This document shows, piece after piece, positions 2,696 through 35,839 of a DNA stretch of 41,468 nt (its first letter is position 1; every line of letters begins with the position of its first letter). The stretch is taken from IMG/VR virus record IMGVR_UViG_2541047699_000015. One strand, written 5' to 3'. The translations under genes and the position numbers were made by a program. The stretch is from a virus. Taxonomy: Duplodnaviria > Heunggongvirae > Uroviricota > Caudoviricetes. The notes under the pieces were generated by a model that saw only the letters and a list, made by a program, of their open reading frames with translations, did not search any database and was not told where the DNA came from.

Positions 2696-3086
2696 CGTCT
2701 TTTCTCCCCGGAATTAACTCGCGTGGATTATCGGAACGGTGATAGAGCCAGATGCCAATACGCACGGCGACAATTGCTGACACGAATGCGCCTGCAGAGA
2801 AAACAATCCCTTTTTCAAAAGAGTCCTGCGTGATGGTAGGGATCAGGCTGGCTATGCCGATAAGAATTGATGCTGCTGGTTTGTAAAAGAGAAGGCCGCA
2901 AAGAAAGCTGAGCATCGACAGGAGCACCCGGCGACGGATGGGGTACTCTACTGCAGAGGTAACAAAAATTACCGCCCCAGCCAAAGCCCCTAAAGCAACC
3001 TCCGGAGGGACACCTGCAATAACCGCAGCAAGAGAACTAACACTAAGCCACTGATTTGAAGTTTCATTGGTTAGTTGGAATGACAT
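2682..3086 (-). CDS. Holin-like membrane protein (3 predicted TM helices)
   Basis: 134 aa, three hydrophobic segments, charged C-terminus; first gene of lysis cassette. Confidence 0.55.
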   Translation of the reverse strand: MSFQLTNETSNQWLSVSSLAAVIAGVPPEVALGALAGAVIFVTSAVEYPIRRRVLLSMLSFLCGLLFYKPAASILIGIASLIPTITQDSFEKGIVFSAGAFVSAIVAVRIGIWLYHRSDNPRELIPGRKDDGNA

Positions 3087-3158: not shown

Positions 3159-5621
3159 TCAATTCCCTGTTAATTGCAAAACTTGCTCTTCCAGCTTTTT
3201 AACCCTGCGTCTCATCATCGCAGATTCCAGAATCAGAGCCTCTTCATAACGGATACCGTAACATTCACCAGCCTCGACGGCTTCGCGTACCAGAACCTTT
3301 GTCTGTATAAGTGGGTAAACTCCTGCAGAATGCTCTTCTTCCGTCACATCCCTGTATTCTGCCGGGGTCTCATTCCACTTGTCATAACAGATAAATGCCA
3401 GTCGTGACACATCTATGCCTTCATTCTGAAATACACTGATAACATGCTGCGCAACTGCACCAAAGTGCCATCTTGCTCCGTCTTTACCTTTCACTTCGAT
3501 CCTGTCAAGGTACTGGTATGAAACCCATTCCACTCTTTCCCATGCGTCCAGTATTTTCTCATCAATAACCTCTGGAGCAGTCTTGAAACGCGCATCGGAC
3601 AGCACCGTAAACGCTGACTGGGTAAATCCCCCCGACCATGCACGACCAGCCAACCCAAGAGAATAAGTATTCGTTGTCGATGGTGTCATGGCTGAATCAG
3701 AAAACTGTATATATTCTGAATTTCCAGTAGATATTCGAATATTTCCATTTATTAGCGACATAGTGCCTTTAGTATTATCACTATTGAATAATTTCAATTG
3801 CGAACTTATACCGCCTCCCACAGCCAGAGATACATCGCCTTCAGCAAGCATTCTGAATTTATCTGCAGAAACAAGCGTCTGGTTAGCAAGGTTAAAATAT
3901 TTAACCCACCATTCAAAACGCCCTGACATAGTCCCAACGTACTGACCAAGCGCAGGGACGTGAACAACATTGCTATTTGTAGTGCCGTCTATACTGGAAA
4001 TACCAGTCACCGCTGATGCAGAACTCAGAATATTATTTCTGTCACCCGGATGTTTAATTTCAACAAAGTTCCTGATACACCCTTCCTCGAAGGTAACCAC
4101 GCCGGAAGAACTATACATGGGGAATATTGACGCATAATTACTGCGTGCAGCATCTAAGAAACGAATGGTTGTAGATGTCTGCAGATCTCCTGATTCATTT
4201 TTCCCATCACACCCAGTCATTAGAATATTACTGGCAATATTATTATTTCCCTGAACGGTGACTCCGTGCGCCTGCTTTGCGTCCGATTCAGAGTAATCAA
4301 CCAGCACATTCGAAATCAGGTTACCAGTCCCCTTGCCAACAACTACTGCGGCGTATTTTGGGTTGTTAGCCATTACACTGCTAATGATATTATTCGTTGG
4401 GGCAGTTTCCGTCTCAGTTCCATTGTAAACAACGTGCTGACACTCTTCACCAATAACATTGCTGACAATGTTATATTTTGCTGCTGTTTTAAGTTCCACT
4501 GCACCAAACTGAGGATAATTTCTGGCTATCACACCATCAATTAGCGTATTTTGCGATGAATCAAAAAGCACACAACCTGCTTTTTTATTATTTGCGAACC
4601 CTAAATACTCTCCTCTTATATCTCTAACAATGTAACCTGACGGAATACCATTATTCGGATAAGCGATCAAGCTAAATCCTGTTCCTCGCGTATTTGTAAA
4701 TCTGATATTTTTAACCGATACATCATGGCCACCTGAAAATGACACCTGGTGTCCCTGCACACTATCATCTGATTTATTTCCCATAATTGTTAGCGTACTA
4801 AGCATGCCACCATCGGGCATGTTAAAAACCAGATGATTACCATCTCTGTCATACTGTTTTATCGTTCCCCCACCTGTTCCGTACAAGCCACAACGTGAAA
4901 GAGAAACTAAAGATGTATTGAATACCCCTTCCGGAACAAAAACACTGCTAAACGAATGTAATGATTTTGTAAAAGCATCCTTGTTATCATTTAAGATTCC
5001 ATTTTGAGCTCCAAAATCCTTAATGCTGACACCATCACGCATCTTATCCTGGAACGTTCTGTATACCGCTCCAGAACCATACTGAATAAACCAACCAAAA
5101 CCACCAATAACTCCGGCGATTGCAGCATCGACATAATTACGCATTGAGCGATTATTTACAGCGTCCTGCTCAAGTGATGGATCGGCAAGGTTAGATATTC
5201 TGTTTTGCTTTGCATCGTAATATTTTGCAAGCAAAGATGGTTTCATCAATGCACGTCTGAACCACCCAAAACATCGCTGGATCAGCATCGTCAGGTAGTC
5301 AAATGCATCCTCATGAACTTCGGGGAAAAATTTTCCCTGATTGCGAAGATCAGTCTCCTGCACCACATCAAGCACACGCTCTATCGTGATTCGCCAGCCA
5401 GCAGCAAGCGGCGACGGAAGAACCACTGCACCGCCACTATAAGTTCCCGCCCCTGTTACCGTATAACCAGCATCCAGCACTAGTTTTGTAACGTTACCGT
5501 TAAGGTCAGACACCTGAACAACCAGGTCGGATTTTTTGAAAATACGGAAGGTATACGGAAATGATGTCGTAACGCCGTTACCTGTGTATTCGTTGTGGTC
5601 AACTTCGGTTGAGACCGTCAT
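3159..5621 (-). CDS. Tailspike: T7 gp17-like N-terminal anchor, beta-helix (pectate-lyase-like) depolymerase body, C-terminal S74-type autocleaving chaperone
   Basis: N-terminus GNGVTTSFPYTFRIFKKSDLVVQV resembles T7 tail fibre N-terminal domain; Gly/Asn/Ser/Thr-rich repetitive body; C-terminal SDARFK ... WHFG motif of intramolecular chaperone; SD GGAG 8 nt before ATG 5621. Confidence 0.75.
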   Translation of the reverse strand: MTVSTEVDHNEYTGNGVTTSFPYTFRIFKKSDLVVQVSDLNGNVTKLVLDAGYTVTGAGTYSGGAVVLPSPLAAGWRITIERVLDVVQETDLRNQGKFFPEVHEDAFDYLTMLIQRCFGWFRRALMKPSLLAKYYDAKQNRISNLADPSLEQDAVNNRSMRNYVDAAIAGVIGGFGWFIQYGSGAVYRTFQDKMRDGVSIKDFGAQNGILNDNKDAFTKSLHSFSSVFVPEGVFNTSLVSLSRCGLYGTGGGTIKQYDRDGNHLVFNMPDGGMLSTLTIMGNKSDDSVQGHQVSFSGGHDVSVKNIRFTNTRGTGFSLIAYPNNGIPSGYIVRDIRGEYLGFANNKKAGCVLFDSSQNTLIDGVIARNYPQFGAVELKTAAKYNIVSNVIGEECQHVVYNGTETETAPTNNIISSVMANNPKYAAVVVGKGTGNLISNVLVDYSESDAKQAHGVTVQGNNNIASNILMTGCDGKNESGDLQTSTTIRFLDAARSNYASIFPMYSSSGVVTFEEGCIRNFVEIKHPGDRNNILSSASAVTGISSIDGTTNSNVVHVPALGQYVGTMSGRFEWWVKYFNLANQTLVSADKFRMLAEGDVSLAVGGGISSQLKLFNSDNTKGTMSLINGNIRISTGNSEYIQFSDSAMTPSTTNTYSLGLAGRAWSGGFTQSAFTVLSDARFKTAPEVIDEKILDAWERVEWVSYQYLDRIEVKGKDGARWHFGAVAQHVISVFQNEGIDVSRLAFICYDKWNETPAEYRDVTEEEHSAGVYPLIQTKVLVREAVEAGECYGIRYEEALILESAMMRRRVKKLEEQVLQLTGN

Positions 5622-5724
5622 GTTAAATCTCCAGATAGTCGCAGCACCCGTTGCGCCGCATATCTGGTTATTCTATTACCCAAAAAACCATATATGGATA
5701 GAAAGACTGTGAATATGAATAGAT

Positions 5725-5741
5725 ATTACCTTTCAGGTAAT
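5725..5741. promoter_or_regulatory. 17-bp operator ATTACCTTTCAGGTAAT
   Basis: Perfect ATTACC-N5-GGTAAT palindrome in the divergent region between tailspike and plus-strand island. Confidence 0.6.
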
Positions 5742-5777
5742 TTGCAAAACGTGCTGGATAGCAAACAAATTATTTGC

Positions 5778-5797
5778 TACTGTATAAATATACAGTT
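5778..5797. promoter_or_regulatory. LexA (SOS) box TACTGTATAAATATACAGTT
   Basis: CTGT-N8-ACAG with AT-rich spacer, 18/20 match to consensus TACTGTATATATATACAGTA as remembered; 20 nt upstream of SD/start of gene 5818. Confidence 0.75.
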
Positions 5798-5817
5798 ATT
5801 GCATGGAGAAGATTAAG

Positions 5818-6075
5818 ATGCAGCAGTATCACTATCCACTGGAAGAGGGATTTACCGAAAGGATTCACACGCCGGGAGGCGTCAGGTCACTGGTGGAGGG
5901 ATCGCACTTGATGAAATTACTCCGGGATCTCGATAAGGATGGATTTAATGTCGATGGCCCACTTGCCGAACTGACTGCACTGATTAACTACGTCACCAGC
6001 TCACAGATGTCTATGCAGGATCTGCAAACACATCTCGACTATTGTGCCGAACAATTACGAAAACAAACCAGATAA
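5818..6075 (+). CDS. Small LexA-box-preceded protein, paralog of C-terminal domain of ORF6N protein; candidate antirepressor
   Basis: SD GGAGAA 6 nt before ATG 5818 (track start 5803 lacks SD); product aligns with C-terminus of 6889-7608 product (IH-P-GV...LM-LL...DG-V-G-AELT...QTH-Y). Confidence 0.6.
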   Translation: MQQYHYPLEEGFTERIHTPGGVRSLVEGSHLMKLLRDLDKDGFNVDGPLAELTALINYVTSSQMSMQDLQTHLDYCAEQLRKQTR

Positions 6076-6078
6076 GGT

Positions 6079-6122
6079 TTGCAATTACCAAATGGAGTGC
6101 TTATATTTACCTTTGCGGTAAA
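6079..6122 (+). promoter_or_regulatory. Sigma70-like promoter (TTGCAA-N17-TATATT) with overlapping operator TTTACCTTTGCGGTAAA
   Basis: -35 at 6079-6084, -10 at 6102-6107, operator 6106-6122 begins 22 nt after the -35 hexamer, same spacing as at 7653 and 35931. Confidence 0.55.
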
Positions 6123-6155
6123 TTTACATCGCACTCCTCTTGTGCCATAGTAATC

Positions 6156-6194
6156 GGGCACTGGCAAAATCCAGTGCCGGGATTGGCGTCCCGG
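6156..6194 (+). ncRNA. Structured leader: two mutually exclusive hairpins
   Basis: Hairpin A GGCACTGG/CCAGTGCC (6157-6178) and hairpin B CCGGGA/TCCCGG (6177-6194) share the CCGG segment, so only one can form. Confidence 0.35.
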
Positions 6195-6212
6195 ATTACT
6201 AGTAGGCGCATA

Positions 6213-6234
6213 CCACGCCAGACGTGGTTTTTTT
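6213..6234 (+). terminator. Rho-independent terminator/attenuator in leader
   Basis: Hairpin CCACG-CCAGA-CGTGG followed by T7 run. Confidence 0.6.
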
Positions 6235-6389
6235 ATGCGTATAGCACAGTCATATCCGAATTATGGTGGGCTGGGCAGGGGCACCGAAAGGTGCGCCGGT
6301 ACCTACTAGGCCGGTACGCCAACCTTGTCCAGTTCACCACCAGCAATTGGCGTTGCGGTGGTGGGTAACTTACTAGTAGAGGTATCGCT

Positions 6390-6896
6390 ATGCCAGGCCA
6401 AAAAATCTCAAACGACGATCTGTATTGGTTAATTTCTAATTCTCCACTCCTTCTTATGCTAAGGCAAGAAAGTGCACCACTGGTCAGTGAATTGATTAGC
6501 TGTAGAAATAGAATGTGGGATGAAGGGGCAGATTTAGATACCAATTTGTTTGATCATCTTATGCAACTAGCAGTCGATAACAAGGCAAAACTACGCTCTG
6601 AATACAACGCTTATCCAGAAATAGCAAAATACCTTAACGCTGAAATACTTGGTGGACCAGGTCAACCAGACCTAAAAACAAAAGATGGTTACCCTGTTGA
6701 GGTGAAGGTAGATACTTTTTCTCCTTCAGCATTAAAACAATTATTAAGGTATATGGATGCTTCTGGCGCAGATTTTGGTTTTGCTTGTGCAAAAACTCTT
6801 TCTGTAAAACTCCCTGAAAACATAAAGTTCATCCAGTTAGATTATAAAGATAATTGCTATTTCGTCGTGAAAGATGGAGGCAATGAAAATGCGTAA
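6390..6896 (+). CDS. Hypothetical protein (accessory island)
   Basis: SD AGAGG 7 nt before ATG 6390; 168 aa; no family recognised; stop overlaps next start (ATGCGTAA). Confidence 0.6.
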   Translation: MPGQKISNDDLYWLISNSPLLLMLRQESAPLVSELISCRNRMWDEGADLDTNLFDHLMQLAVDNKAKLRSEYNAYPEIAKYLNAEILGGPGQPDLKTKDGYPVEVKVDTFSPSALKQLLRYMDASGADFGFACAKTLSVKLPENIKFIQLDYKDNCYFVVKDGGNENA

Positions 6897-7608
6897 TATA
6901 GCTATTGATAAGTTGCCGATAACAACTCATTGCAACATCCCTGTAATGACTACAGAAATGCTTGCTGATTTGTATGACACAGAACCCAAACTGATTCGTC
7001 AAAACTATCAACGAAATGCAGATCGATTCATTGAGGGAAAACATTGTTTCAAGCTGATAGGCGAAGAATTACGAGCATTTAAGAACGAGTCCTCTCAAAG
7101 AGGTTTGCTTAATATTGCACCAAAAGTAAGTCATCTTTTCTTATGGACCGCTCGCGGTGCAGCACGACATGCGAAAATTCTTGAGACTGAAAAAGCGTGG
7201 GAGGTCTTCGAAAAACTGGAAGATTGCTACTTCGACAGAAAACCCGCAAATGTCAGCGGAGATGTTCGTCTCTCAGGTGGAGCTGATTTATCAAAGGCCA
7301 CTCAGGTAATTGAAAAATTCATGCCCGCCATTATGGAGGCGATCAAGCTGGAAGACAAAAAAGAATACAGTGCCCCACTGAAGCCCGGCTACCGCAGTCT
7401 GATTCATTCTCCGTCTGGTGTTCTCGGCCTGACGGAGAACTCATTGCTGATGAATCTGCTGAATCAGTTGCAGGACGACGGGCATGATGTATCGGGCGCG
7501 GCGGCGGAGCTGACCACCATGTTCTGCTACATCGTCGGTGTGAGCAAATGCCTGCGTGATATCCAGACCCACGCGGAGTACATCAACGACAAAGCAGGAT
7601 TCTTCTGA
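6889..7608 (+). CDS. ORF6N-domain protein (phage antirepressor-like) with C-terminal domain shared with 5818-6075
   Basis: N-terminal segment VMTTEMLADLYDTEPKLIRQNYQRNADRF...LWTARGAARHAKIL resembles ORF6N domain of antirepressor-type proteins; start at ATG 6889 with SD GGAGG 8 nt upstream. Confidence 0.6.
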   Translation: MRNIAIDKLPITTHCNIPVMTTEMLADLYDTEPKLIRQNYQRNADRFIEGKHCFKLIGEELRAFKNESSQRGLLNIAPKVSHLFLWTARGAARHAKILETEKAWEVFEKLEDCYFDRKPANVSGDVRLSGGADLSKATQVIEKFMPAIMEAIKLEDKKEYSAPLKPGYRSLIHSPSGVLGLTENSLLMNLLNQLQDDGHDVSGAAAELTTMFCYIVGVSKCLRDIQTHAEYINDKAGFF

Positions 7609-7652: not shown

Positions 7653-7696
7653 TTGCAGACCGGGGGTGAATAGCGTACTATTACCTTAAAGGTAAA
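7653..7696 (+). promoter_or_regulatory. Promoter (TTGCAG-N17-TACTAT) with overlapping operator ATTACCTTAAAGGTAAA
   Basis: -35 at 7653-7658; operator 7680-7696 starts 22 nt after -35; precedes gene 7738. Confidence 0.5.
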
Positions 7697-7737: not shown

Positions 7738-8064
7738 ATGACAAAACTTGGATTCGTGATGAGAGGTCCGGTAAGAAGCGGAACTCATGCAAAGCGTAGC
7801 AAGAGTCGTATTTTTACTGGTAAGGTTGTAGCACGTAAATCAGCTATTGGCTCGTTCAATAGTGAAAATGCGGCATTGCGCCATATTTTTATCAGCACAA
7901 AGCCAAGAGCATCCGCTGATGTGCATACAATGTCTATTCCTATCACAAAGAATATCAAGCGGATAAAAAAGCTCTCATCTGCAGAATCAAAAGAGATATC
8001 TTTCCGCCAGCTTAACTCATTAGAAACGCATATGAAGGAAGAGGAATTCGATGTTTTTGAGTGA
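7738..8064 (+). CDS. Basic small protein, possible antitoxin-like partner of downstream gene
   Basis: SD GGAG 7 nt before ATG; 108 aa, basic N-terminus, acidic C-terminus; C-terminal RQLNSLETH faintly resembles YefM/Phd NSLEE motif; 14-nt overlap with next gene. Confidence 0.5.
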   Translation: MTKLGFVMRGPVRSGTHAKRSKSRIFTGKVVARKSAIGSFNSENAALRHIFISTKPRASADVHTMSIPITKNIKRIKKLSSAESKEISFRQLNSLETHMKEEEFDVFE

Positions 8065-8563
8065 GTATAGCGGGAAGGTTATACCTACTGGTGAGTTTAA
8101 AACTGATGACTTTCTGATTTCGCTAAAAGATGCTTTTAAACAACACTGGCGTCATGGTCATCATCCTGATCTGGGAAAAGATACTCTTTTTGAAAGACCA
8201 GACGAAGTATTAGGCTTCCATCTCAGAAAGGTTCATGTCAATATTGGTGAATATGCATCATATTCATACTCATGTACTGAACAGTGTTGGGATGAGTGGT
8301 CATATGGATTGATTGATGAACAAGGAAATTACAGGCCAAAACCAACCAGTAACGCATATCTCATATATGCAGTCAATGAAATAAGAGATGCAGCCTTACT
8401 AGCTTATTGGGACCCGCCCGCACACACCAAAGCTAACGCAAAAGTTTGGATGGATTCCGTATTGAATTTCACAAAATTATTTCATGAACGAACGAATACA
8501 GCTCCACTTAGTAGAAATGTTTATCCGTGGGATTATTCGTACAAATCCAAAAAGCCTGCATAG
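8051..8563 (+). CDS. Candidate YafO-like toxin family protein (tentative)
   Basis: Segments DAFKQHWRHGHHPDLGKDTLFERPDE and FHLRKVHVNIGE resemble remembered E. coli YafO (DFISYKRDGVLPDTFGRDALYDD, ERVAHIHLANE); from memory only. Confidence 0.4.
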   Translation: MFLSEYSGKVIPTGEFKTDDFLISLKDAFKQHWRHGHHPDLGKDTLFERPDEVLGFHLRKVHVNIGEYASYSYSCTEQCWDEWSYGLIDEQGNYRPKPTSNAYLIYAVNEIRDAALLAYWDPPAHTKANAKVWMDSVLNFTKLFHERTNTAPLSRNVYPWDYSYKSKKPA

Positions 8564-25491: not shown

Positions 25492-25529
25492 TTGACATTT
25501 AACGCGCGAATTATTACCTTTCAGGTAAC
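25492..25529 (+). promoter_or_regulatory. Promoter (-35 TTGACA) with overlapping operator ATTACCTTTCAGGTAAC upstream of tRNA
   Basis: TTGACA at 25492-25497; operator 25513-25529 covers -10/+1 region. Confidence 0.5.
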
Positions 25530-25850: not shown

Positions 25851-25927
25851 GTGGCATTAGCTCAGTTGGACAGAGCAACCGCCTTCTAAGCGGTTGGTCG
25901 CAGGTTCGAATCCTGCATGCCACGCCA
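25851..25927 (+). tRNA. tRNA-Arg (anticodon UCU), phage-encoded argU-like
   Basis: Cloverleaf read by eye: acceptor stem GTGGCAT/ATGCCAC, D-arm GCTC...GAGC, anticodon stem ACCGC/GCGGT with loop CTTCTAA (anticodon TCT at 25885-25887), T-arm GCAGG-TTCGAAT-CCTGC, discriminator G, encoded CCA. Confidence 0.9.
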
Positions 25928-33691: not shown

Positions 33692-34503
33692 AAGAAATCC
33701 TCCCATGCTTCAGGGCTGTTCCAGTGCGGAACGTTGTTATCAGGTAATGTTGATTGCTTCTGTCTGCTAATCTGCAGCCGCCTTGCCAGCTTCTGCTCCC
33801 ACTGTGCCTGATGGTATGCCTTACCCTCAGCCATCCAGTAAATTCTGAACTCTGCAAGTTCCTGTGCCGTTGGCAGACTGTCCAGGTAGATCCCCTGCAA
33901 TGAGCTTTTCCGAAGAAAGTCATCTGATGGCTGCCATTGTTCATGCATGACAAATTTGCCTAATTGCCCTGGCCCACCAGGAGGAACAAAGTTATTCATC
34001 ACGGCGTTGTTTGCTCCGGGGTCATGAGGCACAGAATCCCCGCTTTTTGTCCTGCTCTCCCTCTCTTGGTTAAATGACTGGTTATATGACTGGTTCTGGA
34101 TCCCGTTTTTGGGATCATTCAACATCCCGTTTTTGGGATCATTCAACATCCCGTTTTTGGGTATATTCCCGTTTTCGGGTATATTCCCGTTTTCGGGTTC
34201 ATTGCCCCCCTCCCGGTTGCCTTTAATGTTCCCGTTTTTGGTTATATTAAGAGAGAAAACCCGCACTCTTTTTGTCGCTCCCTTTCTCTCTCCGGTATCT
34301 GAAATAATCCCCATTTTCATGAGCGATATAAGCCCGGCCTGCACGGTTTTTTTATTCAGGCAAGTGTCTTTAACGAGGCGTTCTATGCTGGGGTAGCAGA
34401 GGTTATATTCATCAGCTCTGTCAGCCATCGAGAGCAGTATGAGCTTTAATGATGAGCTACCTGGATCTGTCTCCCAAGCCCAATCTGTTGCATGTCTGCT
34501 CAT
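33688..34503 (-). CDS. Replication initiator (lambda O-like) with internal iterons
   Basis: N-terminal winged-helix-like domain, central repeat NGNIPENGNIPKNGMLNDPKNGMLNDPKNG encoded by DNA iterons, C-terminal domain; SD GGAG before ATG 34503. Confidence 0.7.
   Translation of the reverse strand: MSRHATDWAWETDPGSSSLKLILLSMADRADEYNLCYPSIERLVKDTCLNKKTVQAGLISLMKMGIISDTGERKGATKRVRVFSLNITKNGNIKGNREGGNEPENGNIPENGNIPKNGMLNDPKNGMLNDPKNGIQNQSYNQSFNQERESRTKSGDSVPHDPGANNAVMNNFVPPGGPGQLGKFVMHEQWQPSDDFLRKSSLQGIYLDSLPTAQELAEFRIYWMAEGKAYHQAQWEQKLARRLQISRQKQSTLPDNNVPHWNSPEAWEDFL
34101..34247. repeat. Origin iterons (six direct repeats, core TCCCGTTTT(T/C)GGG) inside O-like gene
   Basis: Copies start at 34101, 34125, 34149, 34167, 34185, 34230; first two are identical 24-mers. 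Confidence 0.8.
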
Positions 34504-34869: not shown

Positions 34870-35100
34870 TCATGAGTAGAAGAAGTATGCCAGTTCCGCT
34901 TTTGAGCGCAGCCATTGTCTTGTTTTACAGGCTTTAAAAAGCCCATTCATCAATACCTTACCTGGCATTTTGCGCTTACCTGTTAAGTGAGTCTGGATAT
35001 AGTGACTCGTCGTTCCGGCTTCCTGTGCGAAGGCTTCACGCTCATCCGGAGTAAGTGCAAGCCAGTGCTTTTTGAAATCGAAATGTCCGTTATCGCTCAT
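34870..35100 (-). CDS. Cro-like HTH regulator
   Basis: 76 aa, first gene of the operon that contains the replication genes, divergent from CI-like gene; HTH-like segment AFAQEAGTTSHYIQTHLTG. Confidence 0.6.
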   Translation of the reverse strand: MSDNGHFDFKKHWLALTPDEREAFAQEAGTTSHYIQTHLTGKRKMPGKVLMNGLFKACKTRQWLRSKAELAYFFYS

Positions 35101-35135
35101 AGCTATTGCCTGATATTTATTTCAGATAATAAATA

Positions 35136-35200
35136 TTCACCCATAAGGTAACAAAAATCAAGGATAGTTACCTATGGGGTGCATTTACCTGTTGGGTAAT
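35136..35200. promoter_or_regulatory. OR-like region: three operators between cro-like and CI-like genes
   Basis: TTCACCCATAAGGTAAC (35136-35152), GTTACCTATGGGGTGCA (35167-35183), TTTACCTGTTGGGTAAT (35184-35200); candidate -10 TAATAT at 35197-35202. Confidence 0.6.
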
Positions 35201-35254
35201 ATTGCTTTAAATTGAATCATCTACTGATTCATATATGAGGCGATTTTCCAGAAA

Positions 35255-35839
35255 ATGAAAAGTATCCAGGACGTCCGCAGGCAAAATCTCAACGACTTGA
35301 TCGACCGTGAATTCAATGGTGTTCAGACGCGGATGGCAGAAAAACTTGGAACTCAGGCAAATCTGGTAAACCGCTGGGCTCTTGGCAAGAAGGTTATCGG
35401 CGACCAGGTTGCGCGAAAAATTGAAGCTGCCGCCAATAAACCCCGTAACTGGCTTGATATCGATCGCTCGCTTTCTCAGGAAGGTTTTCAGCCTGTCGGC
35501 CCAAGCGACATTGGTCAGCTGGCAGCTCACAACCTGGAACGCTGGATGAGTGAAAGCCGCGACCTTTCAACTCAGGGAAAACTTCACCGCGCATCCGGCG
35601 TCGCCCAGGTGACAATAAGCCGCCTGTTAAACAATGAGGTCAGCGTTTCCATTTCCACCCTGGAGAATGTTGCATCTGCATTCGGGCGTCACGGATATGA
35701 ACTACTGATTCATCCGCATGACCCTGCGACCATCAACTATGATCGCTCGCGCTACGCATTGTTACCCGAAACCGAGAAAGCAAAGATCGAAAGTTACATT
35801 GAATTTGTCATCAACCAGAACGAAAAAAACAAACAATAA
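35255..35839 (+). CDS. CI-like prophage repressor with two tandem HTH (XRE-type) domains, no peptidase domain
   Basis: HTH1 about residues 20-60 (QTRMAEKLGTQANLVNRW), HTH2 about 110-150 (LHRASGVAQVTISRLLNN); 194 aa; no LexA-like Ser/Lys autocleavage module. Confidence 0.65.
   Translation: MKSIQDVRRQNLNDLIDREFNGVQTRMAEKLGTQANLVNRWALGKKVIGDQVARKIEAAANKPRNWLDIDRSLSQEGFQPVGPSDIGQLAAHNLERWMSESRDLSTQGKLHRASGVAQVTISRLLNNEVSVSISTLENVASAFGRHGYELLIHPHDPATINYDRSRYALLPETEKAKIESYIEFVINQNEKNKQ

Follow-up and report, generated by a model that had tools for sequence, protein, structure and literature searches.

The leader that precedes the gene at position 6390 of a 41,468-nucleotide stretch of viral DNA (IMG/VR record IMGVR_UViG_2541047699_000015; hereafter, the window) carries the elements of a well-known phage switch. 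We conclude, with a probability of roughly 0.88, that this leader is a secondary-immunity module of the type found at the immI locus of P1 and P7, that it is a homologue of the isrK locus of Gifsy-1, and that its C4 antisense RNA represses an operon encoding an anti-repressor. It is an ordinary member of a kind of system that is already known. The window is a Uetakevirus-like (epsilon15/phiV10) Escherichia coli prophage, chromosomally integrated and of the podovirus type, in which the leader lies past the tail-spike gene (3159-5621, minus strand) and ahead of the gene at 6390. The parts of this explanation that can be read from the DNA itself are the architecture of the leader, its complementarities and their co-evolution, the position of one target at the Shine-Dalgarno (SD) sequence, and the anti-repressor cargo. 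Unless stated otherwise, the elements described below lie on the plus strand.

An original prediction, made from the letters of this DNA without database searches, had described a structured leader resembling an attenuator or a small RNA. The structured character of the region is borne out, in that folding of 6114-6400 is more stable than that of dinucleotide shuffles (z = -4.3), as are the folds of 6259-6344 (z = -4.9) and 6145-6236 (z = -3.6). Moreover, an Rfam scan of positions 5600-7000 returned exactly three matches, all adjacent and on the plus strand. These are c4-a1b1 (RF03163) at 6145-6197 with 45.1 bits against a gathering cut-off of 46.7 (E 8e-10, full model), isrK (RF01394) at 6158-6234 with 68.1 bits against 50 (E 4e-14, full model), and C4 antisense RNA (RF01695) at 6259-6344 with 76.7 bits against 45 (E 6.8e-15, model positions 1-87 of 87). 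The same scan gave no further Rfam family, riboswitch or leader class at E values up to 10. A search for tRNA and tmRNA genes found none in the leader, and the sole tRNA of the window is Arg(tct) at 25851-25927.

The C4 element was absent from the original prediction, as were its 17-bp basal stem and the TTGGCGT/ACGCCAA/TTGGCGT triplet described below. The basal stem pairs 6264-6280 with 6323-6339 and encloses two hairpins and a 7-nucleotide single-stranded segment. The first of these hairpins (6281-6294) is the GAAA-loop hairpin recognized earlier, and the second spans 6295-6315. The minimum free energy (MFE) structure of 6259-6344, at -46.7 kcal/mol, reproduces the C4 family structure, and alignment to the annotated 77-nucleotide C4 RNA of P1 predicts a mature RNA of 77 nucleotides from 6265 to 6341.

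Two segments of C4 are complementary to sequences on both of its sides. The a' site (ACGCCAA, 6316-6322) lies in the single-stranded stretch of the multiloop, and the b' site (CCTACTAG, 6302-6309) in the loop of the second hairpin. On the 3' side, a' matches a2 (TTGGCGT, 6347-6353) at seven of seven positions, and b' (6303-6309) matches b2 (CTAGTAG, 6373-6379, with a duplex region extending to 6384) equally well. Site a2 is displayed at the top of a hairpin (6335-6363) in which the 3' strand of the C4 basal stem pairs with downstream sequence (CACCACC, 6335-6341, with GGTGGTG, 6357-6363). This is the 7-bp stem of the original prediction, which exists but had been misplaced at 6345-6366. Site b2 touches the SD sequence GAGG (6379-6382) ahead of the ATG at 6390, consistent with the earlier remark that the last of three repeats lies at the ribosome-binding site, and the predicted b':b2 duplex has an energy of -14.9 kcal/mol over 6372-6387. 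On the 5' side, a' is complementary to a1 (TTGGCGT, 6183-6189), and the C4 loop at 6302-6309 is complementary to b1 (CTAGTAGG, 6199-6206) at eight of eight positions. The C4 duplexes have predicted energies of -31.7 kcal/mol with the downstream targets and -37.1 kcal/mol with the upstream targets, compared with about -22.5 kcal/mol for shuffles. The assignment to the C4 family is founded on the covariance model score, the fold, the a2/b2 complementarity at the ribosome-binding site, the a1/b1 copy upstream, and the anti-repressor gene downstream.

The repeats that had been proposed to pair with one another are the b1, b' and b2 sites of this system, and so the proposal was right in substance. 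Two of them are exact copies of TTACTAGTAG (6196-6205 and 6370-6379), whereas the third is the related sequence ACCTACTAG (6301-6309). The three b sites look like direct repeats because the allele is nearly palindromic, with a CTAG core. Words similar to TACTAGTAG occur 4 times in the window against 3.1 expected, and TTGGCGT occurs 10 times against 6.9 expected. Neither count is above chance, and thus the significance of these sites rests on their positions and on covariation.

Covariation was evaluated first across a broad sample of loci. Viral contigs were scanned for a pattern built on the invariant C4 core, which yielded at least 120 loci, with 89 different loop sequences among the 121 matches listed, to which the locus counts given from here on refer. 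Some of the matches occur by chance and lack the C4 fold (for example L010, L015, L028, L037, L038, L044 and L050); they were kept in the statistics, where they merely dilute the signal. For 83 distinct loops, the longest complement of a locus's own loop averages 6.7 nucleotides upstream and 7.2 nucleotides downstream, compared with 4.7 and 4.4 nucleotides for the loops of other loci, and the complements fall at fixed positions, approximately -100 and +50 from the C4 core. The variable dinucleotide of a' covaries with TTGGCNN at 66 of the 83 loci upstream and at 61 downstream. Likewise, the complementarity of the C4 3' arm to the next 42 nucleotides averages 5.8 nucleotides within a locus and 4.3 nucleotides against other loci. 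A start codon follows b2 in 62 of 65 loci, at a median distance of 8 nucleotides.

A second comparison used a full-leader alignment of 11 sequences (the window, phiV10, seven viral contigs, P1 and Gifsy-1), scored against the named structure. In this alignment, 85.7% of cells are paired, whereas sliding the partners gives 46% or less. Compensatory changes occur in 27 pairs. Together with the excess of own-locus complementarity, this result answers in the affirmative the check by comparative covariation that accompanied the original prediction. The a1:a' helix is paired in 100% of cells with 3 compensatory pairs, b1:b' exhibits compensatory changes in 7 of 8 pairs across relatives, and a':a2 is 96% paired. 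The C4 basal stem reaches 93.6% and has 5 compensatory pairs, and the C4 helices overall are 86-94% paired. Pairing is lower for the b':b2 helix (57-59%) and the terminator helix (49%), which are under-counted because they are misaligned, and for these two the exact-match tests are the better evidence. An RNAalifold analysis of a MAFFT alignment of 62 C4 regions recovered the two inner hairpins only. The basal stem was missed because alignment gaps broke it, and for this reason the 11-sequence alignment was used instead.

Upstream of C4, the segment matched by the isrK model (6158-6234) carries the a1b1 copy and would correspond to a short RNA with a decoy role. It includes hairpin 1 (GGCACTGG/CCAGTGCC, at about 6157-6178), hairpin 2 (CGGGA/TCCCG, 6178-6193) with a1 in its loop, site b1, and an intrinsic terminator (6212-6234; ACCACG-CCAGA-CGTGGT followed by seven T residues) whose stem spans 6212-6228 and whose T-run extends to 6234. 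Membership in the isrK family is indicated by a score above the gathering cut-off over the full model, by the two 5' hairpins, and by the terminator, which a terminator scan found independently. The internal terminator proposed earlier is therefore real, and the suggested small RNA ending at 6234 gains support from homology through the same full-model match, although its existence in this phage is a prediction.

The suggestion that the leader is a classical attenuator or a riboswitch-like leader, in which mutually exclusive hairpins decide whether the terminator forms at 6213-6234, has in its favor a promoter, hairpins, and an internal intrinsic terminator upstream of a gene. Both 5' hairpins are real. 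However, they do not share the CCGG that had been proposed to make them exclusive. Only the two residues CC at 6177-6178 are common to both, and the hairpins lie side by side and are free to form together, which leaves no terminator/antiterminator pair. Covariation maintains both hairpins (100% and 96% of cells paired in the 11-sequence alignment, with compensatory changes), neither overlaps the terminator stem, and no conserved leader peptide or upstream open reading frame (uORF) accompanies them. Given also that the Rfam scan revealed no riboswitch or leader family and that every element is explained by the C4 system, we consider attenuation of this kind exceedingly improbable.

Of 82 viral loci, 58 have a comparable T-run hairpin in the interval from a1b1 to C4, compared with 4 of 73 control segments. 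In the window, the terminator would divide transcription into short a1b1 RNAs and longer read-through RNAs that include C4. Its conserved location, together with the fact that b1 ends only 5 nucleotides ahead of the terminator stem, could hint at a mechanism like that of P4, in which C4 binding to nascent a1/b1 alters termination at 6212-6234, or binding to a2/b2 causes premature termination. The authors of the Gifsy-1 work raised the analogy with P4 CI, seqA and seqC (PMC4825925). Both P22 sar (immI) and P4 CI resemble C4 in being small phage RNAs that silence anti-repressor (sar) or replication (P4 CI) genes, and P4 CI further resembles it in being cut from its own leader with target copies on both sides (PMC12197685; PMC4825925). 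In contrast to C4, sar is a true cis-antisense RNA made from the opposite strand, and P4 CI acts via premature termination; neither family was found in the Rfam scan of 5600-7000. Furthermore, no alternative pairing was found by which C4 binding would disrupt or complete the terminator hairpin, and 24 of 82 loci lack a terminator by a simple test. In addition, b2 is located at the SD sequence in 62 of 65 loci, which points to translational occlusion as the selected function. A P4-like control by termination is for these reasons judged very unlikely.

The leader closely follows the organization annotated in P1. The GenBank record of P1 lists, in order, the C1 operator Oc4, promoters P2c4 (P51a) and P1c4 (P51b), a1/b1, the 77-nucleotide C4, a2/b2, icd, and ant1/ant2, and labels a2 and b2 with "repression of icd ant translation". 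The leader shares with the P1/P7 immI locus the order and spacing of these elements, tandem promoters, the a1 site in the loop of the second 5' hairpin, a U-run hairpin 5' of C4, the same C4 fold with a length of 77 nucleotides (predicted here), a2 just 3' of C4, b2 at the SD sequence, and a first gene that overlaps the anti-repressor gene. An alignment of the window with P1 spans the promoter hexamers, both 5' hairpins, the U-run, the CCGAATTATGGTGGG junction, C4, and the start codon. Moreover, P1 gives the same three Rfam matches in the same order, with c4-a1b1 at 51.0 bits and with a sub-threshold isrK match that covers the U-run hairpin between b1 and c4 (P1 631-712, plus strand). It is established that full repression of ant in P1 requires C4 (PMC8198154; also the P1 annotation).

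Some differences from P1 concern specificity and cargo. The b sequence is GUUAGUG in P1 and CUAGUAG here, and the a sequence is UUGACAG in P1 and UUGGCGU here. The first gene of P1 encodes the 73-amino acid Icd, whereas that of the window encodes an unrelated protein of 168 amino acids. Likewise, Ant1 of P1 has a KilAC/ANT domain, whereas the anti-repressor predicted here has an ORF6N domain. The C1 operator is absent from the window, where a different palindrome takes the position between the promoters. Finally, P1 is a plasmid prophage, unlike the chromosomally integrated prophage of the window.

The second informative relative is Gifsy-1, in which IsrK is known as a discrete, terminated small RNA that associates with Hfq and switches on the anti-repressor encoded downstream (PMC4825925). 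Its C4 match (69 bits; 34131-34214, minus strand) directly follows isrK and is itself followed by the gene for the ORF6N protein AnrP. This indicates that the segment designated orf45/STnc1160 is a C4 homologue. The window shares with Gifsy-1 the order isrK, C4, ORF6N anti-repressor, an identical a sequence (UUGGCGU), and a terminated RNA of 77 nucleotides (predicted here). In Gifsy-1, however, the anti-repressor gene follows C4 directly, whereas here the 168-amino acid protein gene intervenes; the b sequence is AUCACCG rather than CUAGUAG; and the locus resides in a lambdoid late region beside Q rather than between tail-spike and ejection-protein genes. In addition, the published model of Gifsy-1 treats the C4 region as a coding uORF (PMC4825925).

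That published model raises the alternative that IsrK-type activation is primary in the window. By this account, cis pairing of a1b1 with a'b' ('structure A') locks the mRNA, the short RNA ending at 6234 opens it in trans, and translation of a uORF (6263-6376, 37 codons, ending 14 nucleotides before the ATG) is coupled to that of the gene, as proposed for orf45 and anrP. In its favor are the homology of the two loci, the presence of the cis a1b1:a'b' helix in the whole-leader MFE structure, the existence of an ATG-initiated reading frame at 6263-6376, and the published Gifsy-1 genetics (PMC4825925). These experiments also count in favor of the C4 module. IsrK supplied in trans activates anrP translation at least 100-fold, and mutations in a1 (G28, G31) and in a' (C162, C159) increase anrP translation. 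The G28A/C162U double mutant falls below the a' single mutant, and both double mutants regain the wild-type conformation in native gels (PMC4825925). The abundance of IsrK and STnc1160 in lysogens (PMC7067206) is likewise an argument for the C4 module.

Comparison across loci does not support a translated uORF in the window. The original prediction had stated that the leader holds no open reading frame. Frames do exist at 6042-6368, 6263-6376 and 6325-6432, but none is annotated by PGAP or conserved in frame. Among 44 loci with an ATG at the 5' boundary of C4, the frame in question ends near the gene start in 11, compared with 8 and 11 for the other two frames, and it stops inside C4 in 13, and thus there is no frame-specific signal. 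No SD sequence precedes 6263, the region scores as structured RNA with compensatory changes, and the Gifsy-1 authors themselves observed a stable processed RNA, STnc1160, from this region (PMC4825925). The activation model is in any case compatible with repression by C4 and not exclusive of it. We regard the proposal that IsrK-type activation is primary as quite unlikely.

Several observations nevertheless weigh against the conclusion that this leader is a C4-repressed immI-type module. The whole-leader MFE structure favors cis pairing of a1b1 with a'b' over the C4 fold. The b':b2 helix is contiguous for 7 bp only, and covering the SD sequence GAGG requires a 2-nucleotide bulge. The c4-a1b1 match misses its gathering cut-off by 1.6 bits, and the isrK match that overlaps it exceeds its own cut-off. 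Mutating a1 in cis increased expression in Gifsy-1, which would not be expected of a pure decoy (PMC4825925). Because the first gene is unrelated to icd, the coupling of translation and transcription known from P1 is an assumption here. More generally, the transcripts, their processing, and their expression in this phage are extrapolated from P1/P7 and Gifsy-1.

By analogy with these two systems, we can outline how the module would operate. One promoter would initiate transcription near 6158 and another near 6114. Termination at 6234 would, in some cases, yield an IsrK-like RNA of 77 nucleotides, and read-through transcripts would be processed to the 77-nucleotide C4 RNA (approximately 6265-6341), whose 5' end in P1 is cut by RNase P. 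The b' and a' sites of C4 would then pair with b2 and a2 and block ribosome entry at 6390. With the first gene untranslated, the overlapping anti-repressor gene would also go untranslated and, via polarity, untranscribed; its start inside the stop codon of the 168-amino acid reading frame suggests that it depends on translation of the first gene. If the anti-repressor is not made, the prophage repressor would remain active. The a1b1 sequence, whether free or in cis, would compete for the same surfaces of C4 and may serve as a decoy that sets a threshold, a role in keeping with the Gifsy-1 results, where IsrK activates in trans and the a1 mutants G28A and G31A no longer do so.

The b sequence presumably acts in this scheme as an allele of immunity specificity, as suggested by phiV10 and its relatives among the Uetakevirus group. 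These phages carry the module in the same slot, after a tail-fibre gene and an epsilon15p19-like gene, with 85-93% identity through the promoters, a1b1, terminator and C4, and the window can be aligned with phiV10 across both promoters and C4 as far as the start codon. In phiV10, which is about 86% identical, b1, b' and b2 change together, from CUAGUAG(G) to CUAAAAGG. A gene for a Bro-N anti-immunity protein directly follows the phiV10 leader, in place of the 168-amino acid protein gene found here, and the phiV10 record annotates only the terminator of the leader.

The b element of the window is also a nearly perfect palindrome (UACUAGUA), b1 and b2 are complementary to each other at 8 of 8 positions, and this pairing is present in the MFE structure of 6158-6400. 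It is conceivable that the IsrK-like RNA pairs with the ribosome-binding site through b1:b2 and that C4 loops kiss, to create a three-way switch among decoy, antisense RNA and mRNA, but we consider this arrangement unlikely.

Two promoter candidates precede the module. The upstream candidate, TTGCAA-17-TATATT at 6079-6107, was proposed originally and was recovered by a consensus scan (9 of 12 matches), and its hexamers align one-for-one with the annotated sigma-70 promoter P2c4 (P51a) of P1. The downstream candidate, TTTACA-17-CATAGT at 6123-6151 with an extended -10 TG, emerged from a promoter scan and aligns with the hexamers of P1c4 (P51b), its -10 element CATAGT (6146-6151) being equivalent to that of P51b. 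The start predicted from this promoter, near 6158 and 7 nucleotides past the -10 element, falls on the first position of the Rfam isrK model.

Between the two promoters is a perfect 17-bp palindrome, TTTACC-N5-GGTAAA (6106-6122, without strand), which is a candidate repressor operator. It overlaps the expected start of the upstream promoter, and its center lies about 44 bp ahead of the start predicted for the downstream promoter. Sites with at most two mismatches number 12 in the window against 1.09 expected, and none of 100 shuffles reaches 12. The 17-bp sites of the form (A/T)TTACC-N5-GGTAA(A/T) are found at 5725, 6106, 7680, 15976, 25513, 28680, 32791, 32853, 35136, 35184, 35896 and 35958. 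The sites cluster around two divergent genes, for a cro-like protein (34870-35100, minus strand) and an HTH_3 repressor-like protein of 194 amino acids (35255-35839), and several of them occupy the interval separating these genes at 35100-35255. Most likely, the prophage repressor uses this palindrome as its operator, with copies scattered through the genome in the manner of the C1 operators of P1.

In phiV10 (approximately 3044-3060), both arms of the palindrome are kept and the central five nucleotides are reverse-complemented relative to 6106-6122 (TTTGC to GCAAA). Such a change is expected of a protein-binding palindrome with a free spacer; alternatively, it could have arisen by inversion of a hairpin loop. 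A separate 14-nucleotide inverted repeat, 86% complementary, joins 6148-6161 in the -10 region of the downstream promoter to 6188-6201 in the b1 region, and is seen in close relatives, not in P1. Its 5' arm is transcribed only when the upstream promoter is used, so pairing might hide b1 in these longer RNAs and leave it accessible in the shorter RNAs. Elsewhere in the prophage, the tRNA-Arg gene (anticodon tct; plus strand) has the palindrome site at 25513 about 320 bp upstream of it.

The first regulated gene (6390-6896), which takes the place that icd has in P1, is annotated by PGAP as encoding a hypothetical protein. Its 168-amino acid product belongs to phrog_18738, a family of unknown function in PHROGs, and sequence searches of Pfam, NCBIfam and PDB gave no match. 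We found only 11 homologues, all from Enterobacteriaceae, and AlphaFold gave a poor model (mean pLDDT 44), below the quality needed for a fold search. The protein carries an invariant GGPGQPDL-x-TK-x-GYPVE-x-K segment resembling the motif of PD-(D/E)xK nucleases, with a predicted alpha-beta-beta-beta-alpha-beta order of secondary structure. It has no similarity to Icd of P1. Since the first reading frame after the leader varies across loci (about 69 to 286 codons, 10th to 90th percentile), icd is specific to P1 and not family-defining.

The second gene encodes a predicted ORF6N-domain anti-repressor (6889-7608; Pfam ORF6N at 1e-18, phrog_1760 anti-repressor at 1.5e-97) that is 54% identical to AnrP of Gifsy-1 over 114 amino acids, in the N-domain. 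Its PGAP start at 6889 overlaps the stop codon of the first gene within ATGCGTAA (6889-6896). Just 5' of the leader, and outside the C4-controlled operon, a 90-amino acid reading frame (5803-6075, plus strand; phrog_450, epsilon15p19-like) exhibits 42% identity (E 6e-17) to the last 83 residues of the ORF6N anti-repressor (taken as 6874-7608). This stand-alone copy of the C-terminal domain could modulate the anti-repressor or its target. Directly 3' of the anti-repressor gene and of the palindrome site at 7680 are two overlapping genes (7738-8064 and 8051-8563, both plus strand), the second of which PGAP assigns to the YafO family of type II toxins, with a weak Pfam YafO match and a match to phrog_1651. 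From these similarities, the pair is a probable toxin-antitoxin moron.

The leader has many counterparts. It is matched by 264 phage records, and 456 of 5426 complete E. coli genomes match positions 6060-6900, 22 of them covering at least 80% of the query; E. coli MLI109 (NZ_CP117008), for example, has an identical sequence. The RNA element is unannotated in RefSeq E. coli genomes, for which PGAP gives hypothetical proteins and the ORF6N protein only. The c4 and c4-a1b1 RNAs were reported in 2010 as widespread among Proteobacteria and phages (PMC2864571), and c4 and isrK were seen beside an anti-repressor-type gene in APSE phages via routine Rfam annotation (PMC7313666). Routine annotation of the same kind would account for this intergenic region. 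A 2025 review still lists IsrK and c4 as separate RNAs (PMC12197685). The window, P1 and Gifsy-1 show, however, that the counterpart of IsrK is a1b1 plus the terminator and that the counterpart of orf45/STnc1160, at whose published location Rfam puts the Gifsy-1 C4 match, is C4. The literatures on IsrK and c4 therefore describe one homologous module.

Taken together, these observations describe a standard secondary-immunity switch that decides whether the prophage anti-repressor is made, with little new biology. The doubtful three-way arrangement, if true, would bring a threshold behavior that neither the P1 model nor the Gifsy-1 model predicts. The b allele, for its part, would predict which relatives, such as phiV10, are hetero-immune at this level.

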